This document shows, piece after piece, positions 19,705 through 35,417 of a stretch of DNA of 64,000 nt; the first letter of the stretch is position 1, and each line of letters opens with the position of its first letter. The position numbers and the translations under genes were made by a program. The stretch is taken from assembly GCA_947652325.1 (NCBI GenBank), contig CANTCQ010000001.1, forward strand, positions 134,725-198,724, in the 5' to 3' direction. The stretch is from an uncultured Mycoplasmatota bacterium. GTDB lineage: Bacteria > Bacillota_I > Bacilli_A > RF39 > UBA660. Under the pieces are notes generated by a model. It worked only from the letters and a program-made list of their open reading frames with translations. It was not told where the DNA came from and did not search any database.

Positions 19705-20976
19705 CTATTTGCATTTTTTTATTAAAATTTTTTGAACAAAAAAGTTATCAATAACACTCGTTTCTTTTGAAAATGTATCACTATATTTTATGATATTTTG
19801 GAATATATAAAGACCCATTCCTCTATTATCTCCTTTACTACTAAAGCCTTTTTCTTCCATTCTATCTAAAGCGATATGTTTAAAAGTGTTGGCAAGTAGA
19901 AACACAATTGTTTCTTTTTCTTTATAAAAATGCAAACTTATCATTTTTTCGTTACTTTCTAAACTCGCTTCAATTGCATTGTCTAAAATAATGCCTAAAA
20001 GGGTGTATAAATCGTTTTTTTCTTTGCTCGTTAGAAAATCATCTTTTATTTTGGCGATTTCTTCTGAGATATAAATCTCTACATCAATTTTTAATTCTTT
20101 CATTTGTAATAATTTAAAATTAATTAGTCCTTTTGCTCCAGCAATTGGAATATTTTTAAGTTCAGATAACCACCTGTAATGATTTACTACTTTTTCTTCT
20201 AAAAGAGTGTCGATATATTTTTGTAGTTCTTTATTTTTTTTATCTGTAAGACTTTTTATAATAAGTAATTTATTTTTATATTCATGAACAAAGCTTTTGT
20301 ATTCTGTTAAAAGACCTTCCGTGAATTCGGAATATTCTACCATTTTGTTATAATTTTTTTCTAAATCGTTATTTTTCTCTTTTTCATGAAACAAAATAAA
20401 AACTAAATTAATAATAATAATAAATAAAAATAAATTCATATATAAGTGTAAATTTGAATGAATTTGGTAATGTGTTAGTCGAATTGATGTCACTAAAAAA
20501 AGTCCTATGTTGTTTAAAATTATTTTTGAGAGTAAACTTTTATTTTTATAAATATAGTGGATATTGATAATTTCTTTAATATAATTTTGAAAGATAAGTA
20601 CTGCCAAAAAACTAAGAATGGTTGTACATTTATTTAAAAAAAATAAAGAAGGGATAGGGATATGTAAAATTGTTAGGGTGATGTAAAAAAGAAGTTCAAA
20701 AATAAAACGAATCAAATATATCGTAATGATAATGGGAAGAATGGGTTGATTGTTTTTTCTAAACTCAAAAAAAACAAAAAGAAAACTTAATAAAATATAA
20801 ATAGCAAAAGATGTGAGTGGCTCTGAGTAGGTAAAGTTTATCATATATAAAAAAGCAAAAATGAAGATTCTAATAAAGGATATTCCATATTTTTTCTTAT
20901 GTTTTATTAGTAGGTGTGTCGTTAGAAAAATATAGGAAAAAATCCATAATCCCATACTATAACTATTCCAGTTCAT
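19705..20976 (-). CDS. AgrC/ComD-type (HPK10) membrane sensor histidine kinase
   Basis: N-terminal ~200 aa holds six to seven hydrophobic helices. C-terminal GHKL ATPase has N-box 'LGIILDNAIEA' and G-box 'SSKGDNRGMGL'. It overlaps the LytTR regulator gene by 14 nt. Confidence 0.85.
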   Translation of the reverse strand: MNWNSYSMGLWIFSYIFLTTHLLIKHKKKYGISFIRIFIFAFLYMINFTYSEPLTSFAIYILLSFLFVFFEFRKNNQPILPIIITIYLIRFIFELLFYITLTILHIPIPSLFFLNKCTTILSFLAVLIFQNYIKEIINIHYIYKNKSLLSKIILNNIGLFLVTSIRLTHYQIHSNLHLYMNLFLFIIIINLVFILFHEKEKNNDLEKNYNKMVEYSEFTEGLLTEYKSFVHEYKNKLLIIKSLTDKKNKELQKYIDTLLEEKVVNHYRWLSELKNIPIAGAKGLINFKLLQMKELKIDVEIYISEEIAKIKDDFLTSKEKNDLYTLLGIILDNAIEASLESNEKMISLHFYKEKETIVFLLANTFKHIALDRMEEKGFSSKGDNRGMGLYIFQNIIKYSDTFSKETSVIDNFFVQKILIKKCK

Positions 20977-21706
20977 AATTATTTTCCTTTTTTAATTTTT
21001 CTTTTAAGTCTTTTTTCTTATTTCTGGAAAGTAAGTCAGTTTTATAATTTTGAAAATAAATGCAATTGTTTGTGAAGTCTACTTTTTCAATATTTTTAAG
21101 ATTTACAATACAACTTTGATGTGTTTTAAAAAAATCAGGATTTGATAATAGTTCTGTTTCAATTTTTGTAATACTTTGTTTGAGTTTATATGCTTTTTTA
21201 GGGGTGATAATCGAAGTATAATTATGATTTAGGTCTTTTTCAAAAAACAGAATATCATGATAGGGGATTTGATAAAGTTCATTATTATAAATAAATTTAA
21301 AGGATTTATGTCGCGAATGAATTCGTAAAGCAACTACAATAGCTTCTTCAATTTTATCTTCTACATAATCTTTTTTTGTAATAAAATCAAGCATTAAAAT
21401 TTTACTTGTAAATCCTTCTTCTTTAAAACATTCATGAGAAGTTATCATTATCATTTGACTTTCCCAGTCACCAGCATCTCTTATTTCTCTTGCTAAATCT
21501 AATCCAGATTTTCCCGGGACTTCCATATCCAAAAGAAATATATTTTTTCCTAGTAAATCATCTAATTTCTTTTTGGCTTCTTTGGTGTATTTGTCAATGA
21601 TTAGGATTTGGTATTTATCTTCTTTGTGGCCTATTATATTTAATATGGCGTGTTTATAGTGTTCTTGCCATTTTTTATCATCTTCATAAATTATAAAATT
21701 AATCAT
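20963..21706 (-). CDS. LytTR-family response regulator (AgrA-like)
   Basis: Receiver domain ('IFLLDMEVPGKSGLDLAREIR') plus a C-terminal LytTR DNA-binding domain ('ILFFEKD...HQSCIVNLKNIEKVD'). Confidence 0.9.
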   Translation of the reverse strand: MINFIIYEDDKKWQEHYKHAILNIIGHKEDKYQILIIDKYTKEAKKKLDDLLGKNIFLLDMEVPGKSGLDLAREIRDAGDWESQMIMITSHECFKEEGFTSKILMLDFITKKDYVEDKIEEAIVVALRIHSRHKSFKFIYNNELYQIPYHDILFFEKDLNHNYTSIITPKKAYKLKQSITKIETELLSNPDFFKTHQSCIVNLKNIEKVDFTNNCIYFQNYKTDLLSRNKKKDLKEKLKKENNYELE

Positions 21707-22895: not shown

Positions 22896-22930
22896 TTGTA
22901 TAAAAATAAGATACTGATATTTTTATACAA
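22896..22930. promoter_or_regulatory. perfect 12-bp inverted repeat (candidate operator or 5'-UTR hairpin)
   Basis: TTGTATAAAAAT-N11-ATTTTTATACAA, directly upstream of the repeat-lipoprotein gene. Confidence 0.6.
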
Positions 22931-22959
22931 TGAAGGAAAAAGGAGATAGATTTTTAAAT

Positions 22960-25230
22960 ATGAAACAAGTAAAACATAAAAAAACTTTAAAGAATATATT
23001 GGGACAAGCTAAAGTGATGCTTGCTACAGTAGGACTTACTGGTTCTTTGGTAATGTCTGGTTGTGGATGTGGTGAAAAAAGAACTGAAGATATTTTTGCT
23101 CCAAGTTTAGAAGATTTAATTGATAAAGAAAATGCAAAACCTTTAGTAGAAAATGAAAAACTAATAGAAGAACAACAAACGAACAAAGAAAAAAAACAAC
23201 AAGATTTAAAAGAAGATATCAAAAGTAACAATACCATAGATTTATCAAATTATACGGGATATAGTTTAGATGAAGCTTTAGAGTCTATTGGATTAAAGCC
23301 TACACCAGAGCTTAAAGCAGAATTAGCAGCTTCTCTTGGAATTGATCCATACCTTAAAACAGCAGAACAAAATCTACTTATTTTACAAAGTTTAGGTGCT
23401 ACCATAAATGTTGGTGGTGTTGAACAACAAGTTATTATTAATGAAAATGGAGAGTTTATAGTTGTTCCAGTTGGGGAAGAAAAAAAGAAACAAGAAGAAA
23501 ATGAAATTGCTTCTAATAAAATCGAAACTCCAGAACGTCAAGACCCAGAAAAACTAGAAGATGACGTAAAACCTGTTATTGGTGGTAATGATAACAACGA
23601 TTCTGAAAATCAAAAACCAGGTAATAATGAAGATAAAGATAAAAATGATTCTGAAAATCAAAAACCAGGTAACAATGAAGATAAAGATAAAAATGATTCT
23701 GAAAATCAAAAACCAGGTAATGATGATACGAAACCGAACCCTGAAGACCATGAACATAAATATACCGAAGAAGTTCCAGGTACAAGAATAGCAAAGGCAA
23801 ATGGAGATGGAACACACAACGTATATGCTGATATGAAATGCCCAGAAGATGGAAGTATTCAAAAACAAGTATTAATAGAAAAAAATGTAGTGTGTAAACC
23901 TGGAACAGAAACGTTTACTGAAATAGTAAATGGAGTTGAATACGAATTTGAAATATGTGTAGATGGATGTGGAACAAAAGTTAATTATCGTGTAAAGAAA
24001 CCAGTTCATGACCATAAATATACTGAAGAAGTTCCAGGTACAAGAATAGTAAAGGCAAATGGAGATGGAACACACAACGTATATGCTGATATGAAATGCC
24101 CAGAAGATGGAAGTATTCAAAAACAAGTATTAATAGAAAAAAATGTAGTGTGTAAACCTGGAACAGAAACGTTTACTGAAATAGTAAATGGAGTTGAATA
24201 CGAATTTGAAATATGTGTAGATGGATGTGGAACAAAAGTTAATTATCGTGTAAAGAAACCAGACCATAACCATAAATATACTGAAGAAGTTCCAGGTACA
24301 AGAATAGCAAAGGCAAATGGAGATGGAACACACAACGTATATGCTGATATGAAATGCCCAGAAGATGGAAGTATTCAAAAACAAGTATTAATAGAAAAAA
24401 ATGTAGTGTGTAAACCTGGAACAGAAACGTTTACTGAAATAGTAAATGGAGTTGAATACGAATTTGAAATATGTGTAGATGGATGTGGAACAAAAGTTAA
24501 TTATCGTGTAAAGAAACCAGTTCATGACCATAAATATACTGAAGAAGTTCCAGGTACAAGAATAGTAAAGGCAAATGGAGATGGAACACACAACGTATAT
24601 GCTGATATGAAATGTCCAGAAGATGGAGATATTCAAAAACAAGTTGTTATTATTGAATCAGAACTTTGCGTATCTGATGGTAACATACATACAGTAACTA
24701 TAGGAGATGAAGTGTGGGAACAGGAGTTTTGTCCTCACTGTGGGTATTTAATTAGTTCTAAATTAGTACATAAACATGATTTTGTTTCTCAACCAATTGA
24801 AGGATGTATTGGTTCTTCCAAATTTTCATGCGGTTGTGGGGCAGAAAAAGATATAAATGTTGTTCCTCATGTTCCAGGTGCAGAAGAAATCACACAAATT
24901 GGAGATATGCTTGCTTATAGAATTGTTTGTATTAATTGTGGTTGGACGATTGAATCTGGTGTACGTCCAATTGATACAAATGATGAATTAGAAGCAAAAT
25001 GTGAGGCAATTATTCAACAATATAAAGATACTGAAGATAGCCAAACGAATACGATTGAGTCAAGTGATGGAAATGGGGACTCAATTCCAACAGGTGAAGT
25101 AATACAGATAGACGATGGTCAAGTGAATATGGAAGAAACAAGTAGTGGTAGTGAAGGTGGAGAGCCAGATGCTGAAGATTTAGAAGAAAGTGCTACTCTA
25201 TCTCGTATACTTTCTAGACCTAGGATTTAA
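22960..25230 (+). CDS. repeat-containing Cys/His-rich lipoprotein
   Basis: Signal peptide plus lipobox 'LTGSLVMSG-C'. Contains 3 x 16-aa 'NDSENQKPGNNEDKDK' and ~3.5 x 86-aa units with four Cys and an HxH motif each. The C-terminal part has 'CPHCG', 'SCGCG' and 'CINCG', then an acidic tail. GGAGA precedes ATG 22960; the ORF opens at 22930. Confidence 0.8.
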   Translation: MKQVKHKKTLKNILGQAKVMLATVGLTGSLVMSGCGCGEKRTEDIFAPSLEDLIDKENAKPLVENEKLIEEQQTNKEKKQQDLKEDIKSNNTIDLSNYTGYSLDEALESIGLKPTPELKAELAASLGIDPYLKTAEQNLLILQSLGATINVGGVEQQVIINENGEFIVVPVGEEKKKQEENEIASNKIETPERQDPEKLEDDVKPVIGGNDNNDSENQKPGNNEDKDKNDSENQKPGNNEDKDKNDSENQKPGNDDTKPNPEDHEHKYTEEVPGTRIAKANGDGTHNVYADMKCPEDGSIQKQVLIEKNVVCKPGTETFTEIVNGVEYEFEICVDGCGTKVNYRVKKPVHDHKYTEEVPGTRIVKANGDGTHNVYADMKCPEDGSIQKQVLIEKNVVCKPGTETFTEIVNGVEYEFEICVDGCGTKVNYRVKKPDHNHKYTEEVPGTRIAKANGDGTHNVYADMKCPEDGSIQKQVLIEKNVVCKPGTETFTEIVNGVEYEFEICVDGCGTKVNYRVKKPVHDHKYTEEVPGTRIVKANGDGTHNVYADMKCPEDGDIQKQVVIIESELCVSDGNIHTVTIGDEVWEQEFCPHCGYLISSKLVHKHDFVSQPIEGCIGSSKFSCGCGAEKDINVVPHVPGAEEITQIGDMLAYRIVCINCGWTIESGVRPIDTNDELEAKCEAIIQQYKDTEDSQTNTIESSDGNGDSIPTGEVIQIDDGQVNMEETSSGSEGGEPDAEDLEESATLSRILSRPRI
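23596..23727 (+). repeat. 48-bp in-frame tandem repeat (2.7 copies)
   Basis: Units start at 23596, 23644 and 23692 and differ by 1-2 nt. Confidence 0.9.
23749..24645 (+). repeat. 258-bp in-frame tandem repeat (~3.5 near-identical copies)
   Basis: The landmark CATAAATAT recurs at 23755, 24013, 24271 and 24529, an exact 258-bp period. Only a handful of substitutions separate the units. Confidence 0.95.
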
Positions 25231-25261
25231 TCGGGATTTATCGTGCTTAACCATATAATAA

Positions 25262-25900
25262 ATGAAAGTGGTGAAAGAAATGAAAAAGGGAAATAAATGG
25301 TATCATTCATTTAGTAATTGGCTTATCATTATTGCCTGTGTAATACTAGTTCCTATGTTGGTAATGAATTTAAGTATTATGTTTCAAGCTAAAACAAAAA
25401 AAGATGTTGTTCCAAGTATATTTGGAATAAAACCTTTCATCGTTTTATCTGGTTCAATGGAAACAGAAATACATAAAGGAGATATGATATTAACCAAAAT
25501 AGTTGACCCTGCATCGTTAGGAGTAGATGATGTTATTGCTTTTCGAGATGCAGAAGGAACTGTTACTACGCACCGGGTTATTGATGTTGTGGTAGAAAAT
25601 GGAGAAACATTTTTTATTACAAAAGGTGATAACAATAGTACCCAAGATAAAAATTTGGTAGAACTTAGTGACGTAGAAGGTTTATATATAGGTAGAATTC
25701 CAGGAATTGGTTCTATGATGGATAGCTTATCAGAACCAACAACAATTATTATTGTTGTTTTAGGAATTACCATGATATTTGTAATTGGTTTCTCTATTTC
25801 TAATAAGAAACAAAGAGAAATTGAAAGAAAAGAATTCTTAGAATACAAAAAAAGAAAAGAATTGGAAGAAAAGAATTCTGAAAATAAAAGTAAGTCTTAG
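25262..25900 (+). CDS. sipW: SipW-type (archaeal/ER-type, S26B) signal peptidase I, copy 1
   Basis: N-terminal TM, 'LSGSMETEIHKGD' (catalytic Ser), 'TTHRVID' (catalytic His), 'ITKGDNNSTQD', a second TM and a basic tail. Confidence 0.85.
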   Translation: MKVVKEMKKGNKWYHSFSNWLIIIACVILVPMLVMNLSIMFQAKTKKDVVPSIFGIKPFIVLSGSMETEIHKGDMILTKIVDPASLGVDDVIAFRDAEGTVTTHRVIDVVVENGETFFITKGDNNSTQDKNLVELSDVEGLYIGRIPGIGSMMDSLSEPTTIIIVVLGITMIFVIGFSISNKKQREIERKEFLEYKKRKELEEKNSENKSKS

Positions 25901-26030
25901 AAAGACTTAAATGAATATGCGTAAACTGCCCTTTGGGCGTTTACATAGATTTGGAAGTACATAACTTCCTGTCGCATAACAGAAAAGTTATGCATTATAA
26001 AGAAGAAATTTCGAGGGGAGGTGAAAAAGA

Positions 26031-26720
26031 ATGAAAAAGAAAATGATGGTACTAGGTGGTTTATTAATGGCTGTTGCAATTACAGGTTATTCAGTAAGTG
26101 GAACTTATGCTAAATATATCTCAGCTTTAGATACTATTACTGATAGTGCTAGAGTTGCTAAATTTAGTTTTAAGTTACAAGATAAAGACGGTGCTGATTG
26201 GACAGATACTACAACAGTTGATTTATTTAAAACTGCTTATAATAATAATGCAATTCAAAGTGCTGATACTGATAAAGTTATAGGTCCAGGAGCAACTGGT
26301 GAATATACTTTTACTATTAATGGTACAGCAGAAACTGCTTATACAGTAAAAATTGCAGCAGAAGCTACAGACAAAGATGGAAATGCTATTAATTCAGATT
26401 TAGCAGACCAAATTAAGTTTACTTTAACTAAAAATGGTACAGCTGTTAGCGGTGTAGAAAAAGTTTCTTTAGCTACTTTAGTTGCTGAATTAAATAAAAC
26501 TGATGGAAGTGCAATCGTTGCTGCCAATACAGCATTAAATGACACTTACAAAATTAATTGGGAGTGGGCATTTGATGATGCATCTGCTACAAAAGATGAA
26601 GTAACTAATGCTAATAACCAAAAAGATACAGGATTAGGTTCAAAAGAAACATTAGATACAATTAAATTAACTATCGATGTTACAGTTGCACAATCTGCAA
26701 CTGCTCCAACAATGCCTTAA
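26031..26720 (+). CDS. TasA/camelysin-like secreted protein, putative major fibre subunit
   Basis: Strong GGGGAGGTG RBS. Signal 'MKKKMMVLGGLLMAVAITGYSVSGTYAKYIS' resembles the SipW-cognate class. 'IGPGATGEYTFTI', 'WEWAFD', and a C-terminal 'LTIDVTVAQ'. Confidence 0.65.
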   Translation: MKKKMMVLGGLLMAVAITGYSVSGTYAKYISALDTITDSARVAKFSFKLQDKDGADWTDTTTVDLFKTAYNNNAIQSADTDKVIGPGATGEYTFTINGTAETAYTVKIAAEATDKDGNAINSDLADQIKFTLTKNGTAVSGVEKVSLATLVAELNKTDGSAIVAANTALNDTYKINWEWAFDDASATKDEVTNANNQKDTGLGSKETLDTIKLTIDVTVAQSATAPTMP

Positions 26721-26735
26721 TCAGTATTAAAAAGA

Positions 26736-26788
26736 GGAAGTTAATTTAACTTCCAAATAAGCCTATGAAAATAGTCGTAGGTTTATTT
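26736..26788 (+). terminator. two consecutive hairpins after the subunit gene (partial terminator or attenuator)
   Basis: GGAAGTT-AATTT-AACTTCC, then AAATAAGCCTA-N12-TAGGTTTATTT followed by T-rich sequence. Confidence 0.45.
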
Positions 26789-26846
26789 GAAAATTAAATT
26801 GATTTGTAAAAATAAATTATCCAATAGTAAAAGGAGGGGTACAGAG

Positions 26847-29800
26847 ATGAAGAATTTTTTGAATGAGTTTGCTAGTAAAAAAGATGTTACTTCTGATGAG
26901 AAAAGAAAAAGAAGAATTATTCTTTATATTATCATTATCATCATTATTCTTTTATTAATTACGAGTTGTAGCTGTACATCTAAGTTTTTTGGGAAAATTG
27001 GAGATTTATTTCGCGGAGAAAGCAATTATACAATTGACAATACACAAGATAATCAAGAAATAATAAAAAATAAAGAATTGCAATTTGATACAGATAATAC
27101 TGAGATGTCTCTTAGTGATTCAAGTACTAAAATTAGTTTTTCTTATAAAAATATTAATCCTGGAGGATTTACTTGTTCTACTAGTGATGCTGAAGTTGCT
27201 ACTTGTTATGTTGCCAATAATTATGTAGTGGTAATTCCCAAAAAAATTGGAGATATTACAGTTTATTTACAAACGACTACGAATGGTAAAACATATGAAG
27301 CAAGTACAAAAGTTAGTATTAAAGATATAAATAGAGCAATTGAGTTAGAAAGCAATAGTGGTACATTTAATTTAAAGAAAATGCAAGAATTAAACGTAGT
27401 TTATCGACTTGTTGGATTAGTAGGAAATGTTACTGTGTCTTCTAGTGATGAAAAAATAGCGATTGCTACTGCAAATGATGGTATTTTAAGTATAAAAGGA
27501 CTAAAAGTAGGAGAAGTAATTTTTACATTATCCCTTACTTATAATGACCGAGTTTATACTAATACATACACTGTAAAAGTAATAAACGGTATAAATACAG
27601 GAAATTCTACTAATACAAAACCAGGAGATAGTTCAAATAATATAGAAAAACCAAGTGAAATACCAAATCCAGGAGAAGATAAACCGCCAGTTGTTTTAGA
27701 TGGTGATAGTACTTTAAGAAGTTTAACAACTAATAAAGGAACACTTTTATTTGATAAAAATACTTATTCTTATTATATTGGACTTAGTGCTTGGAACTGG
27801 AAAATTTCTTTAAAAGCACAACCTACAAGTACAAAGGCAAAACTTTCTTATACTTATAATGGTGTAACCGTTTCTTCCTTAGAAAAACTAAAATTAAATA
27901 CGGGAGATAATAAAGTAGTAATTACAGTAACAGCTGAGAATGGTTCTACAAGTATATATGAAGTGGTTGTAAATAAGGCAAAGTCTAGTCAAAATTATTT
28001 GAAAAGTCTTACTACTTCTTTAGGAACTTTGGAACCAAAGTTTAATAAAAATATACTTAGTTATGATATTCGTGTAGGGTATGACAAAGAAAGTTTAGAT
28101 TTAATAGCTAAACCAAAAAGTAAAAAAGCTGCAATTACTTATATTTATAATGGAAAAATTGTAGCAGATTTAAATCATCTTTCTTTAAATACAGGTGATA
28201 ATTTTGTTCAAATTATTGTAACGGCTGAGAATGGAGTTTCTAGAACATATTCAGTTGTTATTAATCGTGAAGTAGCCCCTGGTGTCAAAGATAGTAATAG
28301 TTTATTAAAAAATTTAACAATTTCTAATGGAACTTTAGCATTTGATCCTTATGTGAATCGTTATATGATAGGTGTTTCTACTAATACTTCTGTTGTTTCT
28401 CTAAAAGCAATACCAAGTAGTAAAAAAGCAAGTGTAACTTATACTTTTAATAATATGCCAGTAGAGAATTTAGATAATTTAAATCTACGAATTGGAGATA
28501 ATACAGTTGTTGTTACAGTTATAGCAGAAGATGGAAGTAAAACCGATTATACAGTAGTTATTAATCGGGCAACACCAAGTAAAGAGAATTCCTTGAAAGA
28601 ATTAACAACAAATAAAGGAATACTTACTCCAATATTTGATGAAAATACGCTGGCTTATGAAATTTATGTTGATAGAAAAGAAGAAAACATTACTTTAACA
28701 GCAAGTCTGGCCAATCAAAATGCTTCTATGTTTTATACTTTAGATGGAACAAGTGTAAATAGTTTAACCAATCTTCCTTTAAAACCTGGTAAAAATGTGG
28801 TTAACATTCATGTTGTAAGCGAAGAGGGCATAACTAGAACATATGAAGTTGTAATTTATAGAGAAGTAGACACTTCAAAAAGTAAAGATAGTGCATTATC
28901 AAAAATAGAGGTTTTAAATAATGTAGGTTTACTATCTCCACAATTTAATAAAGATATAACAGAATATGTAGTTGATGTAAAAGCAGACATAGAAAAAATT
29001 TCTTTCGAAGCAGCGCTAAATGATGAAAAAGCAAGTGGAATGCAATTTATGTATAATGGAAAAAAAGTAACTTCTATTTTAGATTTGCCTCTTGTTACAG
29101 GAAATCAAAATGTACTTGTAATTACAGGTATAGCAGAAGATGGTGTTACACAAACTGATTATAAAATCATTATTAATAAAGCGTCTGATCCAGATAAGTC
29201 TAATAATAATCTTTTATCTAATTTAGAAATTAGCAATGTGAATAAGGGAATACTTACCCCAGCATTTTCTCCAAAAATAGATGAGTATAAAGTTTTAGTT
29301 TCAGCAAGTGATAATAAAATAGATCTAAAAGGAACACCTGCAAATAATAAAGCAGAGTTATCTTATACTTATACAAATAAAGATGGAGAAGAAGTAACAG
29401 TAGAAAATGGAACAAATATTTTCTTAAGGCCTGGTGACAATAAAATCGTAATTACGGTTGTAGCGGAAGATGGAACTCCAAAAAATTATACAGTGACAGT
29501 TTACAAACCTGTATACACTGTTGTTGTAAATGTTTTAGATACTTATTATGTAGAAGAAGCACCATTTCAAGTTTCTTATATAGTAAAAGATGAAATGGGT
29601 CAAGCGACAACAGATTATAAAATAGAAGATATTACAACAAATTTATCTTTATTTAATGACCTATTTAGTTTAGACACAACAGTTAAAGGAATTATTACTT
29701 TAACTCCAAAAACAGATAGATTACAAGAATTAGTGGATCAAAATGTTGATATAACGGTTACGTATAATCAAGACAGAAAAGATACCAAAACATTACATTT

Positions 29801-31037
29801 TGCTACACGTCCTGGCTATTATTTAAAAACACAAAATGAAATATATACAGTTACTTTGAATAAAGATAAACATTCTTTTTGGGATATTGTTTTAAATACC
29901 AACTTTTTTGTCAAAGATGTTAAATCAGTACCAGTTGCAAATGGAATACATTTATATACAGAAGGAAATGAAAATGTTTCCATTGATATCGTGGATATTA
30001 CGGAAGGTACTAAAATTATAGATTTAGTTTCAGGAGATTTATCATCTGTTAATTCTTTAACCATTCGTGCTAATTTAAAAAATGTAGGAACGGCTAAAGT
30101 ACATGTTAAAGGAATATATTATGGAAAAATAATTGAATTTGATATTTTAATTGCGATTACAGAAAAATATTCAGTTACGATTTCTGCAGGAGAAGGTTTC
30201 TTTGATGCGTTACTAACAGAATATAAATATGAATATGAACGTGGTACAAAAATAGATTTGGCAAATTATATTCCTTATAAAGTAGATGAAACAGAAAATT
30301 GTAAATACTTTACTCTAGATTATTATCAAGATAAAGAAGGAAACAAATACCAACAAACGGATGTTGTAGAAGTAACAAAAGAACTTGTTTTAACGGCTGT
30401 TTACAAACAAACTTCTGAAATTGTAGATATAAAAGATAAAGGAAAATATTATTTAGAAAATTTAGATATATTTAATAATGAAAGATTTTTAAATAATGAA
30501 AAAGTTATTCATCCTGGAGTAAGTGGAGAACATAGAATAACACTTACAAATAATTTGGCAAGTAAAATCATAATTACTGGAATGACGTTAGAAGAGGATA
30601 CTATTTGTATTCAAGAAGGAAATATTAAGGGTTGTATTAATATGGAATATGCTCTTAAAAGAACGGATTTAAGTACTACTGATATTTATTATTATCCAGG
30701 AAGTGATAAAAGTGGATATACTATTTTAAATCGAGATGCCAATCGAAATGAAGTGAACAATTATCGTGATTTAGATAAACAATATACCCTTCGAACTTTA
30801 AAATTTAAAGATGAAGGTAAAGAAAATATTGAGTTATCTAAAGGAGAAACAGTTGAATTATTTCTACTATGGAGATGGTCTTTTGAAGGTGTCGATGATC
30901 AGTTAGATACAAAGATTGGTGAATATGTTGAAAAACAATTTGCAGAAAAAAAGATTAATGAAATGTATCATTTGTTGATTGGTTTTGATTATGAAATAGA
31001 AAATACATATTGTAAAAAACAAGTAGATACGAATTAA
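26847..31037 (+). CDS. giant surface protein: N-terminal TM/signal, 2 Big_2-like domains, 6 cadherin-like beta-sandwich repeats, C-terminal TasA-like domain
   Basis: AGGAGGGG RBS before ATG 26847. 'ILYIIIIIIILLLITSCSCTSKFF' anchor. Six ~100-aa repeats of the type 'L+sLttn.GtL.P.F..n...Y.i.V......i.l.a.p....a......g.......l.l..G.N.v.I.V.AEdG....Y.v.I'. The C-terminal ~200 aa has 'IHPGVSGEHRITL' and 'WRWSFEG'. Confidence 0.85.
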   Translation: MKNFLNEFASKKDVTSDEKRKRRIILYIIIIIIILLLITSCSCTSKFFGKIGDLFRGESNYTIDNTQDNQEIIKNKELQFDTDNTEMSLSDSSTKISFSYKNINPGGFTCSTSDAEVATCYVANNYVVVIPKKIGDITVYLQTTTNGKTYEASTKVSIKDINRAIELESNSGTFNLKKMQELNVVYRLVGLVGNVTVSSSDEKIAIATANDGILSIKGLKVGEVIFTLSLTYNDRVYTNTYTVKVINGINTGNSTNTKPGDSSNNIEKPSEIPNPGEDKPPVVLDGDSTLRSLTTNKGTLLFDKNTYSYYIGLSAWNWKISLKAQPTSTKAKLSYTYNGVTVSSLEKLKLNTGDNKVVITVTAENGSTSIYEVVVNKAKSSQNYLKSLTTSLGTLEPKFNKNILSYDIRVGYDKESLDLIAKPKSKKAAITYIYNGKIVADLNHLSLNTGDNFVQIIVTAENGVSRTYSVVINREVAPGVKDSNSLLKNLTISNGTLAFDPYVNRYMIGVSTNTSVVSLKAIPSSKKASVTYTFNNMPVENLDNLNLRIGDNTVVVTVIAEDGSKTDYTVVINRATPSKENSLKELTTNKGILTPIFDENTLAYEIYVDRKEENITLTASLANQNASMFYTLDGTSVNSLTNLPLKPGKNVVNIHVVSEEGITRTYEVVIYREVDTSKSKDSALSKIEVLNNVGLLSPQFNKDITEYVVDVKADIEKISFEAALNDEKASGMQFMYNGKKVTSILDLPLVTGNQNVLVITGIAEDGVTQTDYKIIINKASDPDKSNNNLLSNLEISNVNKGILTPAFSPKIDEYKVLVSASDNKIDLKGTPANNKAELSYTYTNKDGEEVTVENGTNIFLRPGDNKIVITVVAEDGTPKNYTVTVYKPVYTVVVNVLDTYYVEEAPFQVSYIVKDEMGQATTDYKIEDITTNLSLFNDLFSLDTTVKGIITLTPKTDRLQELVDQNVDITVTYNQDRKDTKTLHFATRPGYYLKTQNEIYTVTLNKDKHSFWDIVLNTNFFVKDVKSVPVANGIHLYTEGNENVSIDIVDITEGTKIIDLVSGDLSSVNSLTIRANLKNVGTAKVHVKGIYYGKIIEFDILIAITEKYSVTISAGEGFFDALLTEYKYEYERGTKIDLANYIPYKVDETENCKYFTLDYYQDKEGNKYQQTDVVEVTKELVLTAVYKQTSEIVDIKDKGKYYLENLDIFNNERFLNNEKVIHPGVSGEHRITLTNNLASKIIITGMTLEEDTICIQEGNIKGCINMEYALKRTDLSTTDIYYYPGSDKSGYTILNRDANRNEVNNYRDLDKQYTLRTLKFKDEGKENIELSKGETVELFLLWRWSFEGVDDQLDTKIGEYVEKQFAEKKINEMYHLLIGFDYEIENTYCKKQVDTN

Positions 31038-31049
31038 AGGGGTTAAAAA

Positions 31050-31793
31050 ATGAAGGTTATAAAAAGGATATTTTTTATCATTGCAACAGTAGTATTGTTC
31101 TTTCTTTTCTTATTTAACTTTTATACATTTTTTTGTATAAAAATAGCAAAACAAGACTTAGCTACCATTAATGGATATGCTTTATTAGAAGTTGTATCGG
31201 GGTCAATGGAACCTATTATTCATATCGGAGATATGATTGTAATTGATACAAAAACTACTCATTATCAAGAAAACGATATTGTTACATTTTATGATGTGAA
31301 TGGCTCTTTTGTAACTCACAGAATTCTTTCTATAAAAGGGGAAGACATGATTACAAAAGGAGATAATAACAATAGTGAAGATGAATCCATTCCACTAAAA
31401 AATATAGTTGGAAAATATGTTTTTAAAGTAAATGGCCTTGGAAAAATACTTGCTTCTTTTAAAAGTCCCTTCGTGATGATTATGATTTTAATAATTGGTT
31501 TTATGGTTTGTTTCTTAATTAGCACAGATAAAGAGGGAAAACCCATTTTAACACAAGAAGAAAAAGAGTTTCAAGAATTTATAAAAAATAAAGAAAAGAA
31601 ATTAAACGAAAGTAAAAATGATGTAAAAATAAAACAGACTAATGTGAAAAATGTAGATGAAGAAGATAAAAGAGTTGCGAAAAAAGTACAAGAATCAAAA
31701 ACAAGTCTTAAGACAAAAAGTTTTGTACCAAAAAAGAAACTAAATAAAATGTCTACTAAAAAAAGAAAAAATAATAAAAAGAAAAGTAGGTGA
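31050..31793 (+). CDS. sipW: SipW-type signal peptidase I, copy 2, with long Lys-rich tail
   Basis: 'VVSGSMEPIIHIGD', 'VTHRILS', 'ITKGDNNNSED', a second TM, and a ~90-aa highly basic C-terminal extension. Confidence 0.85.
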   Translation: MKVIKRIFFIIATVVLFFLFLFNFYTFFCIKIAKQDLATINGYALLEVVSGSMEPIIHIGDMIVIDTKTTHYQENDIVTFYDVNGSFVTHRILSIKGEDMITKGDNNNSEDESIPLKNIVGKYVFKVNGLGKILASFKSPFVMIMILIIGFMVCFLISTDKEGKPILTQEEKEFQEFIKNKEKKLNESKNDVKIKQTNVKNVDEEDKRVAKKVQESKTSLKTKSFVPKKKLNKMSTKKRKNNKKKSR

Positions 31794-32428
31794 ATATCGT
31801 GAATGAATTATTACATAGTAAAAGATTTAGGGCAAATTTATATAAATGGCTGTGTATGTATGTAGGGGTTATGTTATTACTTACTACTGTAATAACTTAT
31901 TCAAGATATATGACCAAATTGCAAATTTCTGATGATGTAAGAACTGCTAAATTTGATGTAAAAGTAAAAGGAATAGAACAAATGTGTCCAGGGACTTCTT
32001 CTACTTGTAATAGTGGTGCGTATTTGGTAGGTAATCAAATGAATTATTATTTTACAGTTGACCCTAAAGAATTGGAAGTACGTGCAGAAGTTTCTAGATT
32101 GATTATTCAAATAAAAAATAATTTTCGAATTCAAAAAATTGAAAATGTAAAAATAAGTACCAATGTGGATGGTGTTCCAATTGAAGAAATAACAAAAACA
32201 ATTTGTGATTCTACTACATCTAATACTTGTTTAGGTACAGAAAGTAAAGCTACGGGAACCTATACTTATTCATTAAAAGAACCAGTTTTATTAGACCTTT
32301 CGAATAAAGAGGCCATAAATTATAAAATAACCCTCTTATATGTTGGAGATGCAATAACAAATCCCGAAGGAATCTATATTGATAAAATGATAACCGTTGA
32401 TTATACAGTACAACAAAAAACAAAATAA
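31790..32428 (+). CDS. TasA-like minor secreted protein (212 aa)
   Basis: GTG start overlapping the sipW-2 stop (GTGA). N-terminus 'VGVMLLLTTVITYSRYMTKLQISDDVRTAKFDVKV' aligns with the 26031 protein ('GTYAKYISALDTITDSARVAKFSFKL'). Ends 'ITVDYTVQQ'. Confidence 0.65.
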   Translation: MNIVNELLHSKRFRANLYKWLCMYVGVMLLLTTVITYSRYMTKLQISDDVRTAKFDVKVKGIEQMCPGTSSTCNSGAYLVGNQMNYYFTVDPKELEVRAEVSRLIIQIKNNFRIQKIENVKISTNVDGVPIEEITKTICDSTTSNTCLGTESKATGTYTYSLKEPVLLDLSNKEAINYKITLLYVGDAITNPEGIYIDKMITVDYTVQQKTK

Positions 32429-32443
32429 GAAAGGAGGAGTTCC

Positions 32444-34594
32444 ATGAAAAAAGAAAAAAAATTCTACAAAAAAGTAGAATATCATCGAAAAATTGGTCAA
32501 GCTATTGCAAGCACATTATTCGTACTCGGAATAGCAGCGATGTCGGTTTTTCCAGAGTCTCACTCTAAATATATTACGAGTGGTCAGGTGGAGTTGGGAA
32601 GTGCTACTTTGTATCCAAAAGAACAAGGTACATTGACAAAAGATAATTTTAAATTATTAGGTTCCAAAGATACCGCACCGCCACCGGGTACGAATTATAA
32701 TTCAGATGAAACATATGCATTTATAAAAGTTTCTTTTACTAAAAATTCTGTAGATGAAATTATTGGAGATAGTCATGATTATGTGGTAAAAACTCCAACT
32801 TGTAATATAGTATATGTGAATGGTACAAAGATAAGTGGAAGTGTTAAAGAATATACAATTCCTTCTATAGGAAAAGAAAATCAAGTAATAATGAAGTGTA
32901 GTGTTAAAAACAATACACAAGGAAATAATTTAAAAGCTTCCATTCAAATTGAGGAAACTATTAAGGATACTACTTTTACTTATAAGACGGGTGAATTTAT
33001 AGAATCAATTGATTCCTATAAAGATAAATATTCATCGGATATTCCAGTACCAGAGCCCGAAATAGTAAAAACTAAAGAATATATTAGTATTCCAACTGTT
33101 TTTATAAATGAAGATTCTACATATAGTACAGAATTTGTTAGTTGGTTGGATATGATAGTAGATGATGCGAGTTATGATGAAACCGTAAAACAAAATATTA
33201 AAAGTTATATTCGAAATTCTTATAGTAATTTGGCTTCTCTTAAGAGTGACCAAAGTTTACCAAGTATCAAGTTTTATCATCCAAATACAGAAGGAAATAA
33301 AGAAGATGTATATAAACTAGAAATTATTAGAGAAAATTTAGTAGGATATGCTAAAACATATCAAAATCATATGGCAAATCCAAATCTCATGTATTTTTCG
33401 AGTATGGATTCAAAAATCGTTCAAGATGCTTTTATTTATTATTTAACACATTATAAATATCCAATAAAAGATGATGCTCAATTAGTTTTAGATTATGTAG
33501 ATTTAATGAGCGAACATAAAGGGCTATCTTATTTAATGGAAACGGATGAGCTTGGAAATTTAAAATATGAAATTCCAGGAATAAAATATGAGCCTGAGGG
33601 ACAGAAAGTTACATTAGAAGATACTTTATTGATTTTTGCTTATACTAAAATTAATTCAATTATAAAGTTATCTTATGATAATCCTTATGTAGCACTTACA
33701 GGATATGATGAAATGTTGAGAAAAATTTTCAAATTTGAAAAGTATGAAATTGATATTCTTGAAGGTAATGATATCTTAAATCTTATTCTTATGAAACCTA
33801 CAGAAAAATTTAATAAATTCTTTGTTTATAATGCTGTTGATACAGAAAATTCAAATAGTAGTTATTTGCTTGTTCATATGTATTCTGATGATTTGTCTTC
33901 CTTATTTATTGAAGTTACTAAGGTACCATTTGAGAAGACAACGAATACCTTAACTCTTACAGTAGATATTACAAATTACAAAACAACAGAGATTACAGAT
34001 TTAACTTCTGCTGTAGAAAGTTTATTTAATGATAAAAAAGTTGAATTTACAATACAAGATGAAAGTGATAAAAAGACCATTGTTTATACAGTTACAGATA
34101 AGGTAACTGGTGATGAGATAGTTGATAATACAGATTCTATTTTAGATTTGAATGAAAATGTTTTATCTAACACAAATGTTCAACCACCAAAGGTTTTGGA
34201 TGGAGCTAATACAAATAAAAATGATAGCAATGGTACAAATACTACTAAAAAAGTGGATAAGAGTGAAGAAAATTTCCAAACTGTAAATTCTGATAATAAA
34301 ACAGAACAAGAAGATAAAAAAGTAAAAGAAGAAAATTCTGTTAAAATTTCAAATAGTGAAACAGATAATGTAGTTAATGCGAATGTTTCTAATAAAATGA
34401 ATGTATCTAATGATAATCAAGAAGAAACTTTAGATTTAGATACCAAAGTAGAAAATGTAAATACTGTTAATACAACTTCTCAAATAAATATTGGAGCTCC
34501 TCCAGTGATAGGGGATAATGTAACTCCTGATATAGGAATAGAAGAGGTTGCTAGCGGATTTATAAATTTCATTGAACCTGTAGCAACAGGATAA
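32444..34594 (+). CDS. large secreted protein (716 aa) with the same signal motif and an N/T-rich low-complexity tail
   Basis: AGGAGG RBS. 'LFVLGIAAMSVFPESHSKYITSG' signal-like N-terminus. No LPXTG sorting signal. Confidence 0.7.
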   Translation: MKKEKKFYKKVEYHRKIGQAIASTLFVLGIAAMSVFPESHSKYITSGQVELGSATLYPKEQGTLTKDNFKLLGSKDTAPPPGTNYNSDETYAFIKVSFTKNSVDEIIGDSHDYVVKTPTCNIVYVNGTKISGSVKEYTIPSIGKENQVIMKCSVKNNTQGNNLKASIQIEETIKDTTFTYKTGEFIESIDSYKDKYSSDIPVPEPEIVKTKEYISIPTVFINEDSTYSTEFVSWLDMIVDDASYDETVKQNIKSYIRNSYSNLASLKSDQSLPSIKFYHPNTEGNKEDVYKLEIIRENLVGYAKTYQNHMANPNLMYFSSMDSKIVQDAFIYYLTHYKYPIKDDAQLVLDYVDLMSEHKGLSYLMETDELGNLKYEIPGIKYEPEGQKVTLEDTLLIFAYTKINSIIKLSYDNPYVALTGYDEMLRKIFKFEKYEIDILEGNDILNLILMKPTEKFNKFFVYNAVDTENSNSSYLLVHMYSDDLSSLFIEVTKVPFEKTTNTLTLTVDITNYKTTEITDLTSAVESLFNDKKVEFTIQDESDKKTIVYTVTDKVTGDEIVDNTDSILDLNENVLSNTNVQPPKVLDGANTNKNDSNGTNTTKKVDKSEENFQTVNSDNKTEQEDKKVKEENSVKISNSETDNVVNANVSNKMNVSNDNQEETLDLDTKVENVNTVNTTSQINIGAPPVIGDNVTPDIGIEEVASGFINFIEPVATG

Positions 34595-34793
34595 AATTTA
34601 TTTTGAGTTTCAGTATTTTTAAAAATTTATTTTAGTACCGGTTAAAATAAATAGTTATGAGCTCGGTTTGAAAGATATAAGAAACTTAGAATTTTTAAAT
34701 ATAATTGTTATGATGCATTTAACAAAAATAAGAGTAGGTAGGAACAACCTACTTTTATTTTTGTTTAAATACAAAAAAATACTTGTTTTTTAT

Positions 34794-34822
34794 TTGACAA
34801 TTTGTAAACTATTGAGTAGAAT
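34794..34822 (+). promoter_or_regulatory. sigmaA-type promoter
   Basis: TTGACA-N17-TAGAAT, ~30 nt upstream of the GAGGGGG RBS of the next gene. Confidence 0.55.
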
Positions 34823-34853
34823 AATAAACGTTTTTATAGAGGGGGTGTTTTTT

Positions 34854-35417
34854 ATGAAAATTAAAAATATTCGGAAAATAGACGCAAAAGGTGCTAAAAA
34901 TAATTTACGATTTAAAAAAAGACGTTTGGAGATTTTTAAAGCAGGACAGAAAAGTAGTTTTATATTATTTTTAGCTACATTTAGTGCTACTACTATTCAA
35001 ATTATTGGAAAAAATTATCTTGATGGTATTTTATTAAGTGGTTTATCTGGTTTTTCTTTTTACTCATTAGCTAATTTTTCTCGAAAACTAGTAAATGTTA
35101 TTTTGGAAAACATACAAGAATATCCAGAATTACAAAATAAACTGAAAAGGATATTAAAACATCGTGATAGAAGTTTTATTACTTTTTTAATTGCTTATCC
35201 TAGTTTTTTAGGTAAATTTTTAGAAGGAAATTATTCGACAACTGAGAATGTGTGGATTGGTTTACTTGGAGGAATATCTATTTTGACTTGTCTTTCTTCT
35301 AGTGTTTTGACTGTTCTTTTTGATGAATATGGAAAAGAACAAAATAACATCTTGAAATCAGAATTAGATATTATTGATTTAGATACGGAAGAAGGAGAAT
35401 TAAAGTTATTACGTTAA
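34854..35417 (+). CDS. hypothetical membrane protein (187 aa)
   Basis: GAGGGGG RBS before ATG 34854; the ORF track opens at TTG 34668, upstream of the promoter. Several hydrophobic helices and no recognisable motif. Confidence 0.55.
   Translation: MKIKNIRKIDAKGAKNNLRFKKRRLEIFKAGQKSSFILFLATFSATTIQIIGKNYLDGILLSGLSGFSFYSLANFSRKLVNVILENIQEYPELQNKLKRILKHRDRSFITFLIAYPSFLGKFLEGNYSTTENVWIGLLGGISILTCLSSSVLTVLFDEYGKEQNNILKSELDIIDLDTEEGELKLLR

Follow-up and report, generated by a model that had tools for sequence, protein, structure and literature searches.

A conserved N-terminal motif in a TasA-like fibre operon of an uncultured Mycoplasmatota bacterium is a probable variant of the SipW-cognate cleavage site

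The closest parallels to the locus described here come from the tapA-sipW-tasA operon of Bacillus subtilis, the sipW-bsaA-bsaB-bsaC(-RSD) operon of Clostridium perfringens, the haloarchaeal Taf filaments and the archaeal bundling pili. In TasA, residues 28–38 form a donor strand with contacts at F29, I32 and F39, and TapA shares this N-terminal donor sequence (PMC9674648). Aromatic residues at P2 and P2′ hinder LepB, the P-type signal peptidase of Escherichia coli, and TasA is cleaved by SipW (PMC10269814). A donor-strand exchange model has been put forward for BsaA, with SipW cleavage following docking (PMC7395162, PMC11580942), and in the Taf system SignalP had predicted a site other than the one actually cut (PMC11821415). 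Here, we analyse a locus in a stretch of 64,000 nucleotides from an uncultured Mycoplasmatota bacterium (assembly GCA_947652325.1, contig CANTCQ010000001.1, positions 134,725–198,724 of the forward strand; this whole stretch is referred to as the window and its own numbering is used throughout). Three proteins encoded in one operon, P229, P212 and P716, carry a common short motif immediately after an N-terminal hydrophobic segment, and are accompanied by two SipW-like signal peptidases, SipA and SipB, and by a giant cadherin-like protein. The motif is real and conserved. It is probably the P3–P3′ cleavage and recognition site of a variant SipW-cognate signal peptide cut by the endoplasmic reticulum (ER)-type peptidases of the operon, and the system as a whole is most likely a variant of the SipW-dependent TasA-like fibre systems and not a new category.

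The locus resembles the B. subtilis operon in the modelled TasA-like jelly-roll fold of its putative major subunit (P229), in the layout of the proposed cut (Thr–aromatic–small before it and x–aromatic after it, as in TasA) and in a second protein, P212, which like TapA has a donor-like N-terminal sequence in common with the major subunit. It differs in having two paralogous peptidases where B. subtilis has one, in matching neither Pfam PF12389 nor any NCBIfam signal model, in the presence of an extra giant cadherin-like protein and a third substrate of 500–1200 residues, and in its hosts, which are uncultured gut Bacilli and Oscillospirales. The C. perfringens operon offers a similar set of parts (SipW, the polymerizing TasA-like BsaA, its non-polymerizing paralogue BsaB and a large third protein, BsaC; PMC7395162, PMC11580942) with a two-component system, bsaR/bsaS, nearby, just as a LytTR system lies at 19705–21706 here. 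The likeness is one of operon make-up, and no sequence-level link to the Bsa proteins was established. The C. perfringens operon has a single SipW, BsaA is locked by an N35–K74–E56 isopeptide bond, and BsaC contains a von Willebrand factor A (VWA) domain, whereas P716 has no recognizable domain.

Among archaeal systems, TafA, TafE, TafC and TafF build a donor-strand filament of several subunits, comprising the major one, an adaptor, a tip or nucleator and an anchor, and the cluster encodes an S24/S26 signal peptidase, TafD, which is needed for processing (PMC11821415). Export there is by the twin-arginine translocation (Tat) and not by the general secretory (Sec) route, the host is archaeal, no motif is shared, and TafD differs in its four transmembrane segments and its DUF5305 partner. 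The AbpA/AbpB bundling pili are likewise built from a TasA-like subunit assembled by donor-strand insertion, and a large TapA-like protein encoded downstream has been proposed as both pilus nucleator and adhesin; they differ in that the subunit is processed by a generic signal peptidase at an ordinary AMA/T site, with no dedicated peptidase (PMC9245690).

The initial annotation of this DNA had proposed a motif common to three proteins of the locus, and all of the strings that it quoted are present, each just after a hydrophobic segment. P229 (229 residues, 26031–26720) has the N-terminal string ...SGTYAKYISALDTITDSARVAKFSFKL, with the motif T25-Y-A/K-Y-I-S31 at 26103–26123 (the slash marks the proposed cut, A27/K28). 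P212 (31799–32428) has ...VITYSRYMTKLQISDDVRTAKFDVKV, with the motif T-Y-S/R-Y-M-T at 31895–31915 and the proposed cut after Ser, and P716 (32444–34594), a large protein predicted to be secreted, has ...PESHSKYITSG, with the motif S-H-S/K-Y-I-T at 32558–32578. The pattern [TS][YFH][AS][KR][YF][IVMT] occurs three times in the 113 open reading frames (ORFs) of at least 60 residues in the window (23,178 residues), and all three copies are those in P229, P212 and P716, directly after the hydrophobic segment and in one operon. Residue shuffles gave a mean of 0.15 copies, with P = 0.0015 for at least three, for a pattern defined post hoc from the three copies; conservation in orthologues is the stronger test.

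Non-conservation among orthologues had been named at the outset as grounds for discarding the motif; an alignment of the N-termini and the logos built from it show strong conservation instead. For P229, 114 homologues were found in the database and 224 relatives in a set of contigs limited to one genome per species, and the logo from 158 unique N-termini reads V-[S/G]-G-T100-[Y84/F15]-A100-K98-Y100-[I/T/V]-[S/T] (numbers are percentages). The corresponding logos are T-[T/S]-V-[I/V]-T100-Y100-S100-[K83/R16]-[Y96/F3]-[I/V/M]-[S/T] for the P212 family (54 sequences) and [Y/F]-P78-x-[S65/T34]-[H/Y/R]-[S86/T13]-[K78/R13]-[Y73/F26] for the P716 family (23 sequences). The P229 family reaches its lowest entropy in the motif region (0.44 bits over P7–P1, against 2.35 bits elsewhere) and the P212 family falls to 0.09 bits at P5–P1. 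In both of these small-protein families the signal stretch (0.09–0.77 bits) is the most conserved part, compared with 2.1–2.35 bits for the mature domain. Such conservation of the signal region is unlike that of ordinary signal peptides and was counted in favour of a cleavage site. A downstream strand of the AR(V/T)AKF type, also claimed for P229 and P212, is borne out by the logos of both families. In P229 it is A40-R-V-A-K-F-S-F-K48 (26148–26174), the family consensus being D-x-A-R-V-A-K-[W/F] with A-R-V-A conserved at 82–87%, K at about 69% and W/F at about 87%; its P212 counterpart is V-R-T-A-K-F-D-V-K (31937–31963), with the family consensus D-x-A-R-x-A-K-F.

The same picture holds at a larger scale. 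Across the related loci (about 1.3 Mb; 80 loci were kept for the locus statistics), the motif follows a hydrophobic segment in 148 ORFs, 142 of which belong to the P229, P212 and P716 families, with the other six in the P716 position. A 48-position profile of the N-terminal module (A3) was compared with 1.84 billion representatives, clustered at 50% identity, and returned 4,146 clusters at E ≤ 1e-3, 836 of which also pass E ≤ 1e-10. For each of the 150 listed matches the best stretch starts within residues 2–24, and the motif is present in all 113 newly returned proteins among them. No names were found among the cluster members of the family, and none of the members has a domain in the local copy of Pfam.

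The initial annotation had read the motif as a code distinct from the canonical SipW-cognate signal, a view that does not survive a change of register. The mature chain of TasA in PDB entry 8AUR begins at A28, giving the cut GGTWA/AFND, and once the sequences are aligned on this cut, from which the earlier comparison was displaced, the layout is the same: Thr or Ser at P3, an aromatic residue at P2, Ala or Ser at P1, the cut, any residue, and an aromatic residue at P2′. What differs is the basic residue at P1′ and the I/V/T-S/T at P3′–P4′, where TasA has N-D. A cut before K/R satisfies the (-3,-1) rule in all three families, with Thr or Ser at P3 in 100% of the sequences and with Ala (P229), Ser (P212) or Ser/Thr (P716) at P1, with the addition in P716 of a Pro at P5, the classical helix breaker. 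Features of a SipW-cognate signal are present, namely an adjoining SipW-type peptidase together with small P3 and P1 and aromatic P2 and P2′ residues as in the TasA GGTWA/AF. The N-termini of P229, P212 and P716, and three full-length homologues, gave no match to NCBIfam at E ≤ 10; TIGR04088, which we take to be the SipW-cognate signal-peptide model, was not confirmed to be in the copy of NCBIfam that was searched. P229, P212 and P716 also match no Pfam family (E ≤ 0.1, including PF12389) and no NCBIfam family.

The fold of the two smaller proteins was assessed from AlphaFold2 (AF2) models. The model of P229 has a predicted local distance difference test (pLDDT) score of 80, and its fold matches one PDB entry alone below E = 1e-3, the cryo-electron microscopy (cryo-EM) structure of the TasA fibre (8aur_A; E = 6.8e-6, probability 1.00); it matches the TasA monomer 5of1_B with a probability of 0.99, and several donor-strand pilins stand lower in the match list. 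The best PDB match of the P212 model (pLDDT 76) is likewise 8aur_A (E = 1.5e-3, probability 0.99). As judged from these models, P229 and P212 are TasA-like jelly-rolls, in the sense of fold class and remote homology only, with template-modelling (TM) scores of 0.33–0.38. P212 and P229 are paralogues, and their profiles (A2 and A1, respectively) align in hhalign with a probability of 95.8% (E = 8.3e-9, 91 columns). In the P229 model residues 24–35 have pLDDT < 50 and a strand follows at residues 45–50, the A40–K48 segment being the first β-strand after the N-terminal extension. The low confidence of this extension in a monomer model is as expected of a donated strand. The profile of P229 gave chance matches only against PDB sequences, and hhalign of A1 against TasA gave a probability of 0.2%, with only the C-terminal ...ATQ strand aligned. 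The last β-strand ends in ...TATQ in P229 (about 26680–26700) and ...YSAxQ in P212, compared with ...FEATQW in TasA (residues 226–233), and the Gln of this strand is invariant in the P229 and P212 families. Some P229 homologues (P0013, P0020, P0029 and P0104; 364–391 residues) have an extra C-terminal domain of about 130 residues with conserved GYYY and IDYS-L-F. The P212 homologue P0136 carries a precomputed match to PF28357, a Pfam accession that the local copy does not contain, and curation of the P212 family may be very recent.

These observations suggest the following scheme. P229, P212 and P716 would be exported by Sec, with the hydrophobic segment holding each in the membrane, and SipA or SipB would cut between the small residue (Ala or Ser) and Lys/Arg, the exact scissile bond being placed here from the sequence. 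The cut would leave K/R-Y-[I/V/M]-[S/T] as the mature N-terminus, beginning at K28 in P229, R39 in P212 (in the numbering of the 212-residue ORF; R36 in that of the 209-residue form) and K42 in P716. In P229 and P212 this would open the extension KYISxxxxD-x-ARVAKF, which, by analogy with TasA 28–38, may be donated as a β-strand to the next subunit of a TasA-like fibre, so that the P′ side of the motif would double as the first residues of the donor strand. Because of its aromatic P2 and P2′ residues the site is probably cut poorly by the general P-type signal peptidase; processing, and hence release and polymerization, would then be left under the control of the dedicated peptidases. By analogy with TasA/TapA, BsaA–C and the haloarchaeal TafA/E/C/F, P229 would be the major subunit, P212 a minor or adaptor subunit or a nucleator, and P716 a tip, nucleator or adhesin, with the giant cadherin-like protein as a separately targeted (lipobox-like) partner at the cell surface.

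Several points weigh against this reading. In every family member the cut is a prediction from sequence, and P229 offers an alternative (-3,-1) site, S-V-S/G, four residues upstream. Sec substrates, to our knowledge, seldom have a basic residue at +1. The AF2 model of P212 runs the motif inside a long confident helix (residues 11–46), and the n-region of P212 is hyper-conserved; together these fit an uncleaved anchor as well as they fit a cleaved signal. The TM-scores to TasA are low, the sequence-profile comparison with TasA is not significant, and strand donation is put forward only by analogy. The n-region in question, LLHSKxFRxNLYKW (31799–31870; residues 4–27 in the 212-residue numbering), is loosely similar to the n-region of the KxYKxGKxW-type signal but has no match among the NCBIfam models, and its conservation is unusual for a signal peptide.

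Three other explanations were considered for the motif. It could be mainly structural, as the start of the donor strand or an element at the membrane interface, with the signal removed elsewhere by a general peptidase, for example at the S-V-S/G of P229. The P2′ Phe of TasA does itself make contacts in the donor strand, P229 has this small-x-small site upstream of the motif, and the AF2 helix of P212 passes through it. We nevertheless consider this improbable: a strand would not need the invariant small residues at P3 and P1, P716 has the six-residue core only and nothing of the ARVAKF extension, no better upstream site exists in P212 or P716, and dedicated peptidases adjoin the motif-bearing genes. 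We give still less credence to the proposal that at least one of the proteins, P212 in the first place, goes uncleaved and stays in the membrane as a type II anchor for the fibre. The motif would then be a docking site, and the peptidase paralogue would either be an assembly factor or set the fibre free only when cued. In its favour, conservation in P212 is highest in the n-region and hydrophobic segment (0.6–0.95 bits, against 2.1 bits for the rest), with L7, F13, N16, L17, K19, W20 and Y24 invariant, and BsaA oligomers have been reported to be membrane-anchored before SipW cleavage (PMC11580942). Both peptidases nevertheless keep all of their catalytic residues, and the motif fits the (-3,-1) rule perfectly. 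The last explanation, that the likeness arose by chance or was passed on without function through gene duplication, draws on the paralogy of P229 and P212, which does account for part of the similarity. It is effectively refuted by the orthologue logos, in which the key positions are 96–100% conserved over hundreds of sequences that are otherwise only 30–40% identical; moreover, three copies were observed where shuffling led us to expect 0.15, and the motif is also found on P716, which is not detectably homologous. The similarity among the three families is limited to about six residues (P3–P3′), the footprint of a protease cleft, which argues that the motif did not simply come along with a shared ancestral domain. 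A variant SipW-cognate cleavage site remains the reading that we favour.

The operon encodes two candidate enzymes for such a cut. SipA (212 residues, 25262–25900) and SipB (247 residues, 31050–31793, with a Lys-rich C-terminal tail) are ER/archaeal-type signal peptidases I that score 91.4 and 82.6 bits, respectively, against TIGR02228 (curated cut-off 51.85). The cut-off of 190 bits for the Bacillus SipW equivalog NF046067 is not reached (scores of 104.5 and 77.6), and SipA and SipB are therefore described as SipW-like and not as SipW orthologues. They form two separate clades, with identities of 52% and 43% within them and 28% between them, and in both the catalytic residues expected of this type, which has no Lys general base, are 99–100% conserved: Ser in GSM, His in THR and Asp in GDN (77 orthologues in the SipA set). 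SipA adjoins P229 in 75 of the 80 loci. SipB lies immediately upstream of P212 (the median gap is 7 nucleotides) and occurs in 51 of the 54 loci that have 8 kb or more of sequence downstream of P229.

Gene order and the identity of the P1 residue bear on which peptidase may cut which substrate. The initial annotation had suggested that the recognition code might be shared out between the two peptidases. A division of labour, in which SipA would cut only P229 and SipB only P212 and P716, is possible, and we advance it tentatively, with the balance tipped somewhat against it. The same holds for its suggested basis, that each peptidase reads its own motif or c-region (VSGT-Y-A as opposed to TVIT-Y-S or P-x-S-H-S). 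The two clades are ancient and are both retained in nearly all loci with enough flank, each gene sits just upstream of its presumed substrate, and SipA–P229 modules can stand alone, as in locus L071. Among Bacilli P1 is Ala in P229 and Ser in P212 and P716, and among the new representatives in the best 150 listed profile matches it is Ala in 39 of P229 type and Ser in 67 of P212 type, with seven further Ser-P1 sequences classed as P229 type solely on the absence of the P212 n-region pattern. In Clostridial loci (L059, L072, L048 and L053, including Acutalibacteraceae), however, SipB-adjacent proteins have Ala at P1, which rules out the P1 residue as a universal discriminator between SipA and SipB substrates. 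Ala and Ser are in any case both ordinary P1 residues, none of the clade-specific positions listed for SipA and SipB was mapped to the substrate pocket, and B. subtilis processes both TasA and TapA with one SipW. Extra P229-type genes were found elsewhere in two metagenome-assembled genomes (MAGs), those of L010 and L055 (at L020 and L075, respectively), with no peptidase detected alongside, so a cognate peptidase can probably act in trans.

A more elaborate scheme, which we rate as rather unlikely, is that of an assembly line gated by signal peptidases. SipB would act on the nucleating P212 and P716 and SipA on the elongating P229, each through its own variant of the motif, so that when, and in what sequence, signal peptides are removed would determine the succession of subunits joining the TasA-like fibre; the invariant basic P1′ and the Tyr at P2′ would exclude the housekeeping peptidase. 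In the P229 family K28 and E101 are near-invariant and D199 is invariant. By analogy with the isopeptide bond of BsaA, the near-invariant N-terminal Lys might lock the subunits covalently.

A protein in the P716 position follows P212 in 25 loci as found by BLAST and in six more as found by the motif only. P716 has a low-complexity C-terminus rich in N, D and T. The homologue search with P716 was overrun by low-complexity words and gave only two matches, and the family was built from ORFs of the related loci. Between P716 and P229 no homology was found beyond the motif, and the alignment of the motif region is itself not significant.

The giant protein (1396 residues, 26847–31037) contains six Cadherin-like β-sandwich domains (PF12733, E = 1.6e-58, six stretches) and its gene was found in 62 of the 80 loci. 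The initial annotation had seen a weaker version of the motif at its N-terminus. The string, ...SCTSKFFGK, is indeed present (26970–26996), but its Lys is only 36% conserved in 61 orthologues, and their logo has a different conserved motif, which rules out a weak copy: poly-Ile/Leu is followed by [I/L]-T-S-C-(S-C)-T-S-x-F-[F/W]-G-[K/R]-I-G-x-x-F, with S93-C95-T81-S86-x-F75-[F50/W37]-G100-[K/R]-I88-G100 as percentages. In the window this element is I-T-S-C-S-C-T-S-K-F-F-G-K-I-G-D-L-F (26958–27011). At the end of the hydrophobic segment [I/L]-T-S-C fits the lipobox pattern [LVI]-[ASTVI]-[GAS]-C (one orthologue has Arg at -1), the N-terminus gives weak sub-threshold NCBIfam matches to lipoprotein signal regions, and the n-region is unusually long at about 23 residues. 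The element is thus lipobox-like and may be a lipoprotein signal; alternatively, a SipW-type cut at C-T-S/x-F-[F/W] could be envisaged, since the (-3,-1) rule is obeyed there also.

The operon occupies 22930–34594 on the plus strand and comprises seven tightly spaced genes, including those for SipA, P229, the giant protein, SipB, P212 and P716. The GC content is about 28% throughout the region, and the genes rimP, nusA, infB, rbfA, truB, rpsO and pnp lie 3′ of the operon. Two starts were revised. The P212 ORF as listed spans 31790–32428, and the true start is likely to be the GTG at 31799, giving 209 residues, because the orthologues begin MKGLLHSK. For the giant protein the TTG at 26787 given by the ORF lister is probably too far upstream; the ATG at 26847 is likelier because it is preceded by a strong ribosome-binding site, AAAGGAGGGG, and gene callers give 1396 residues. 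A promoter and terminator scan found no terminator-like site on the plus strand within the gene block and otherwise gave nothing informative in this AT-rich DNA.

The remaining gene of the block, 5′ of that for SipA (22930–25230), encodes a 766-residue protein with a lipobox-like N-terminus (VMSGC), four tandem Cys-containing repeats of about 86 residues (HKYTEEVPGTRI...CPEDG...CGT; DNA period about 258 bp) and NDSENQKPGN low-complexity repeats. It is found upstream of SipA in just six of the 80 related loci. Upstream of the operon, on the minus strand at 19705–21706, are a GHKL histidine kinase and a LytTR response regulator, which may regulate it. The 130-nucleotide leader of P229 contains several hairpins (25921–25994), and a perfect 8 bp hairpin, GGAAGTTAA-TTT-AACTTCC (26736–26754), lies 16 nucleotides past the P229 stop codon and has no T tract. 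These hairpins may be elements of mRNA processing or stability that favour the major subunit; a search of the operon, including the hairpin-rich leader, against Rfam found no family. After P716, a 249-residue ORF (34668–35417) has a terminator-like hairpin inside it (34736–34754) and also holds the best promoter-like site of the region (34794–34822, 11 of 12 matches), and its N-terminal part is probably non-coding.

The order SipA, P229, giant protein, SipB, P212 and, in longer loci, P716 is found in about 50 of the 80 loci, and most of the others end at contig ends. The hosts are uncultured gut Bacilli/'Tenericutes', Oscillospiraceae, Acutalibacteraceae and Ruminococcus MAGs. For this large unannotated family the motif provides a simple annotation signature, comparable to the SipW-cognate signal model, and the family marks operons for TasA-like surface fibres in uncultured gut Bacillota. 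To the question of how Sec substrates are routed to ER-type or P-type peptidases the system brings natural variation at P1, P1′ and P2′, and the two co-resident paralogous peptidases allow tests of substrate specificity. Taken together, the analysis is indicative of fibres or a biofilm matrix in RF39-like Bacilli and Oscillospirales, structures that may matter for colonization of the gut.

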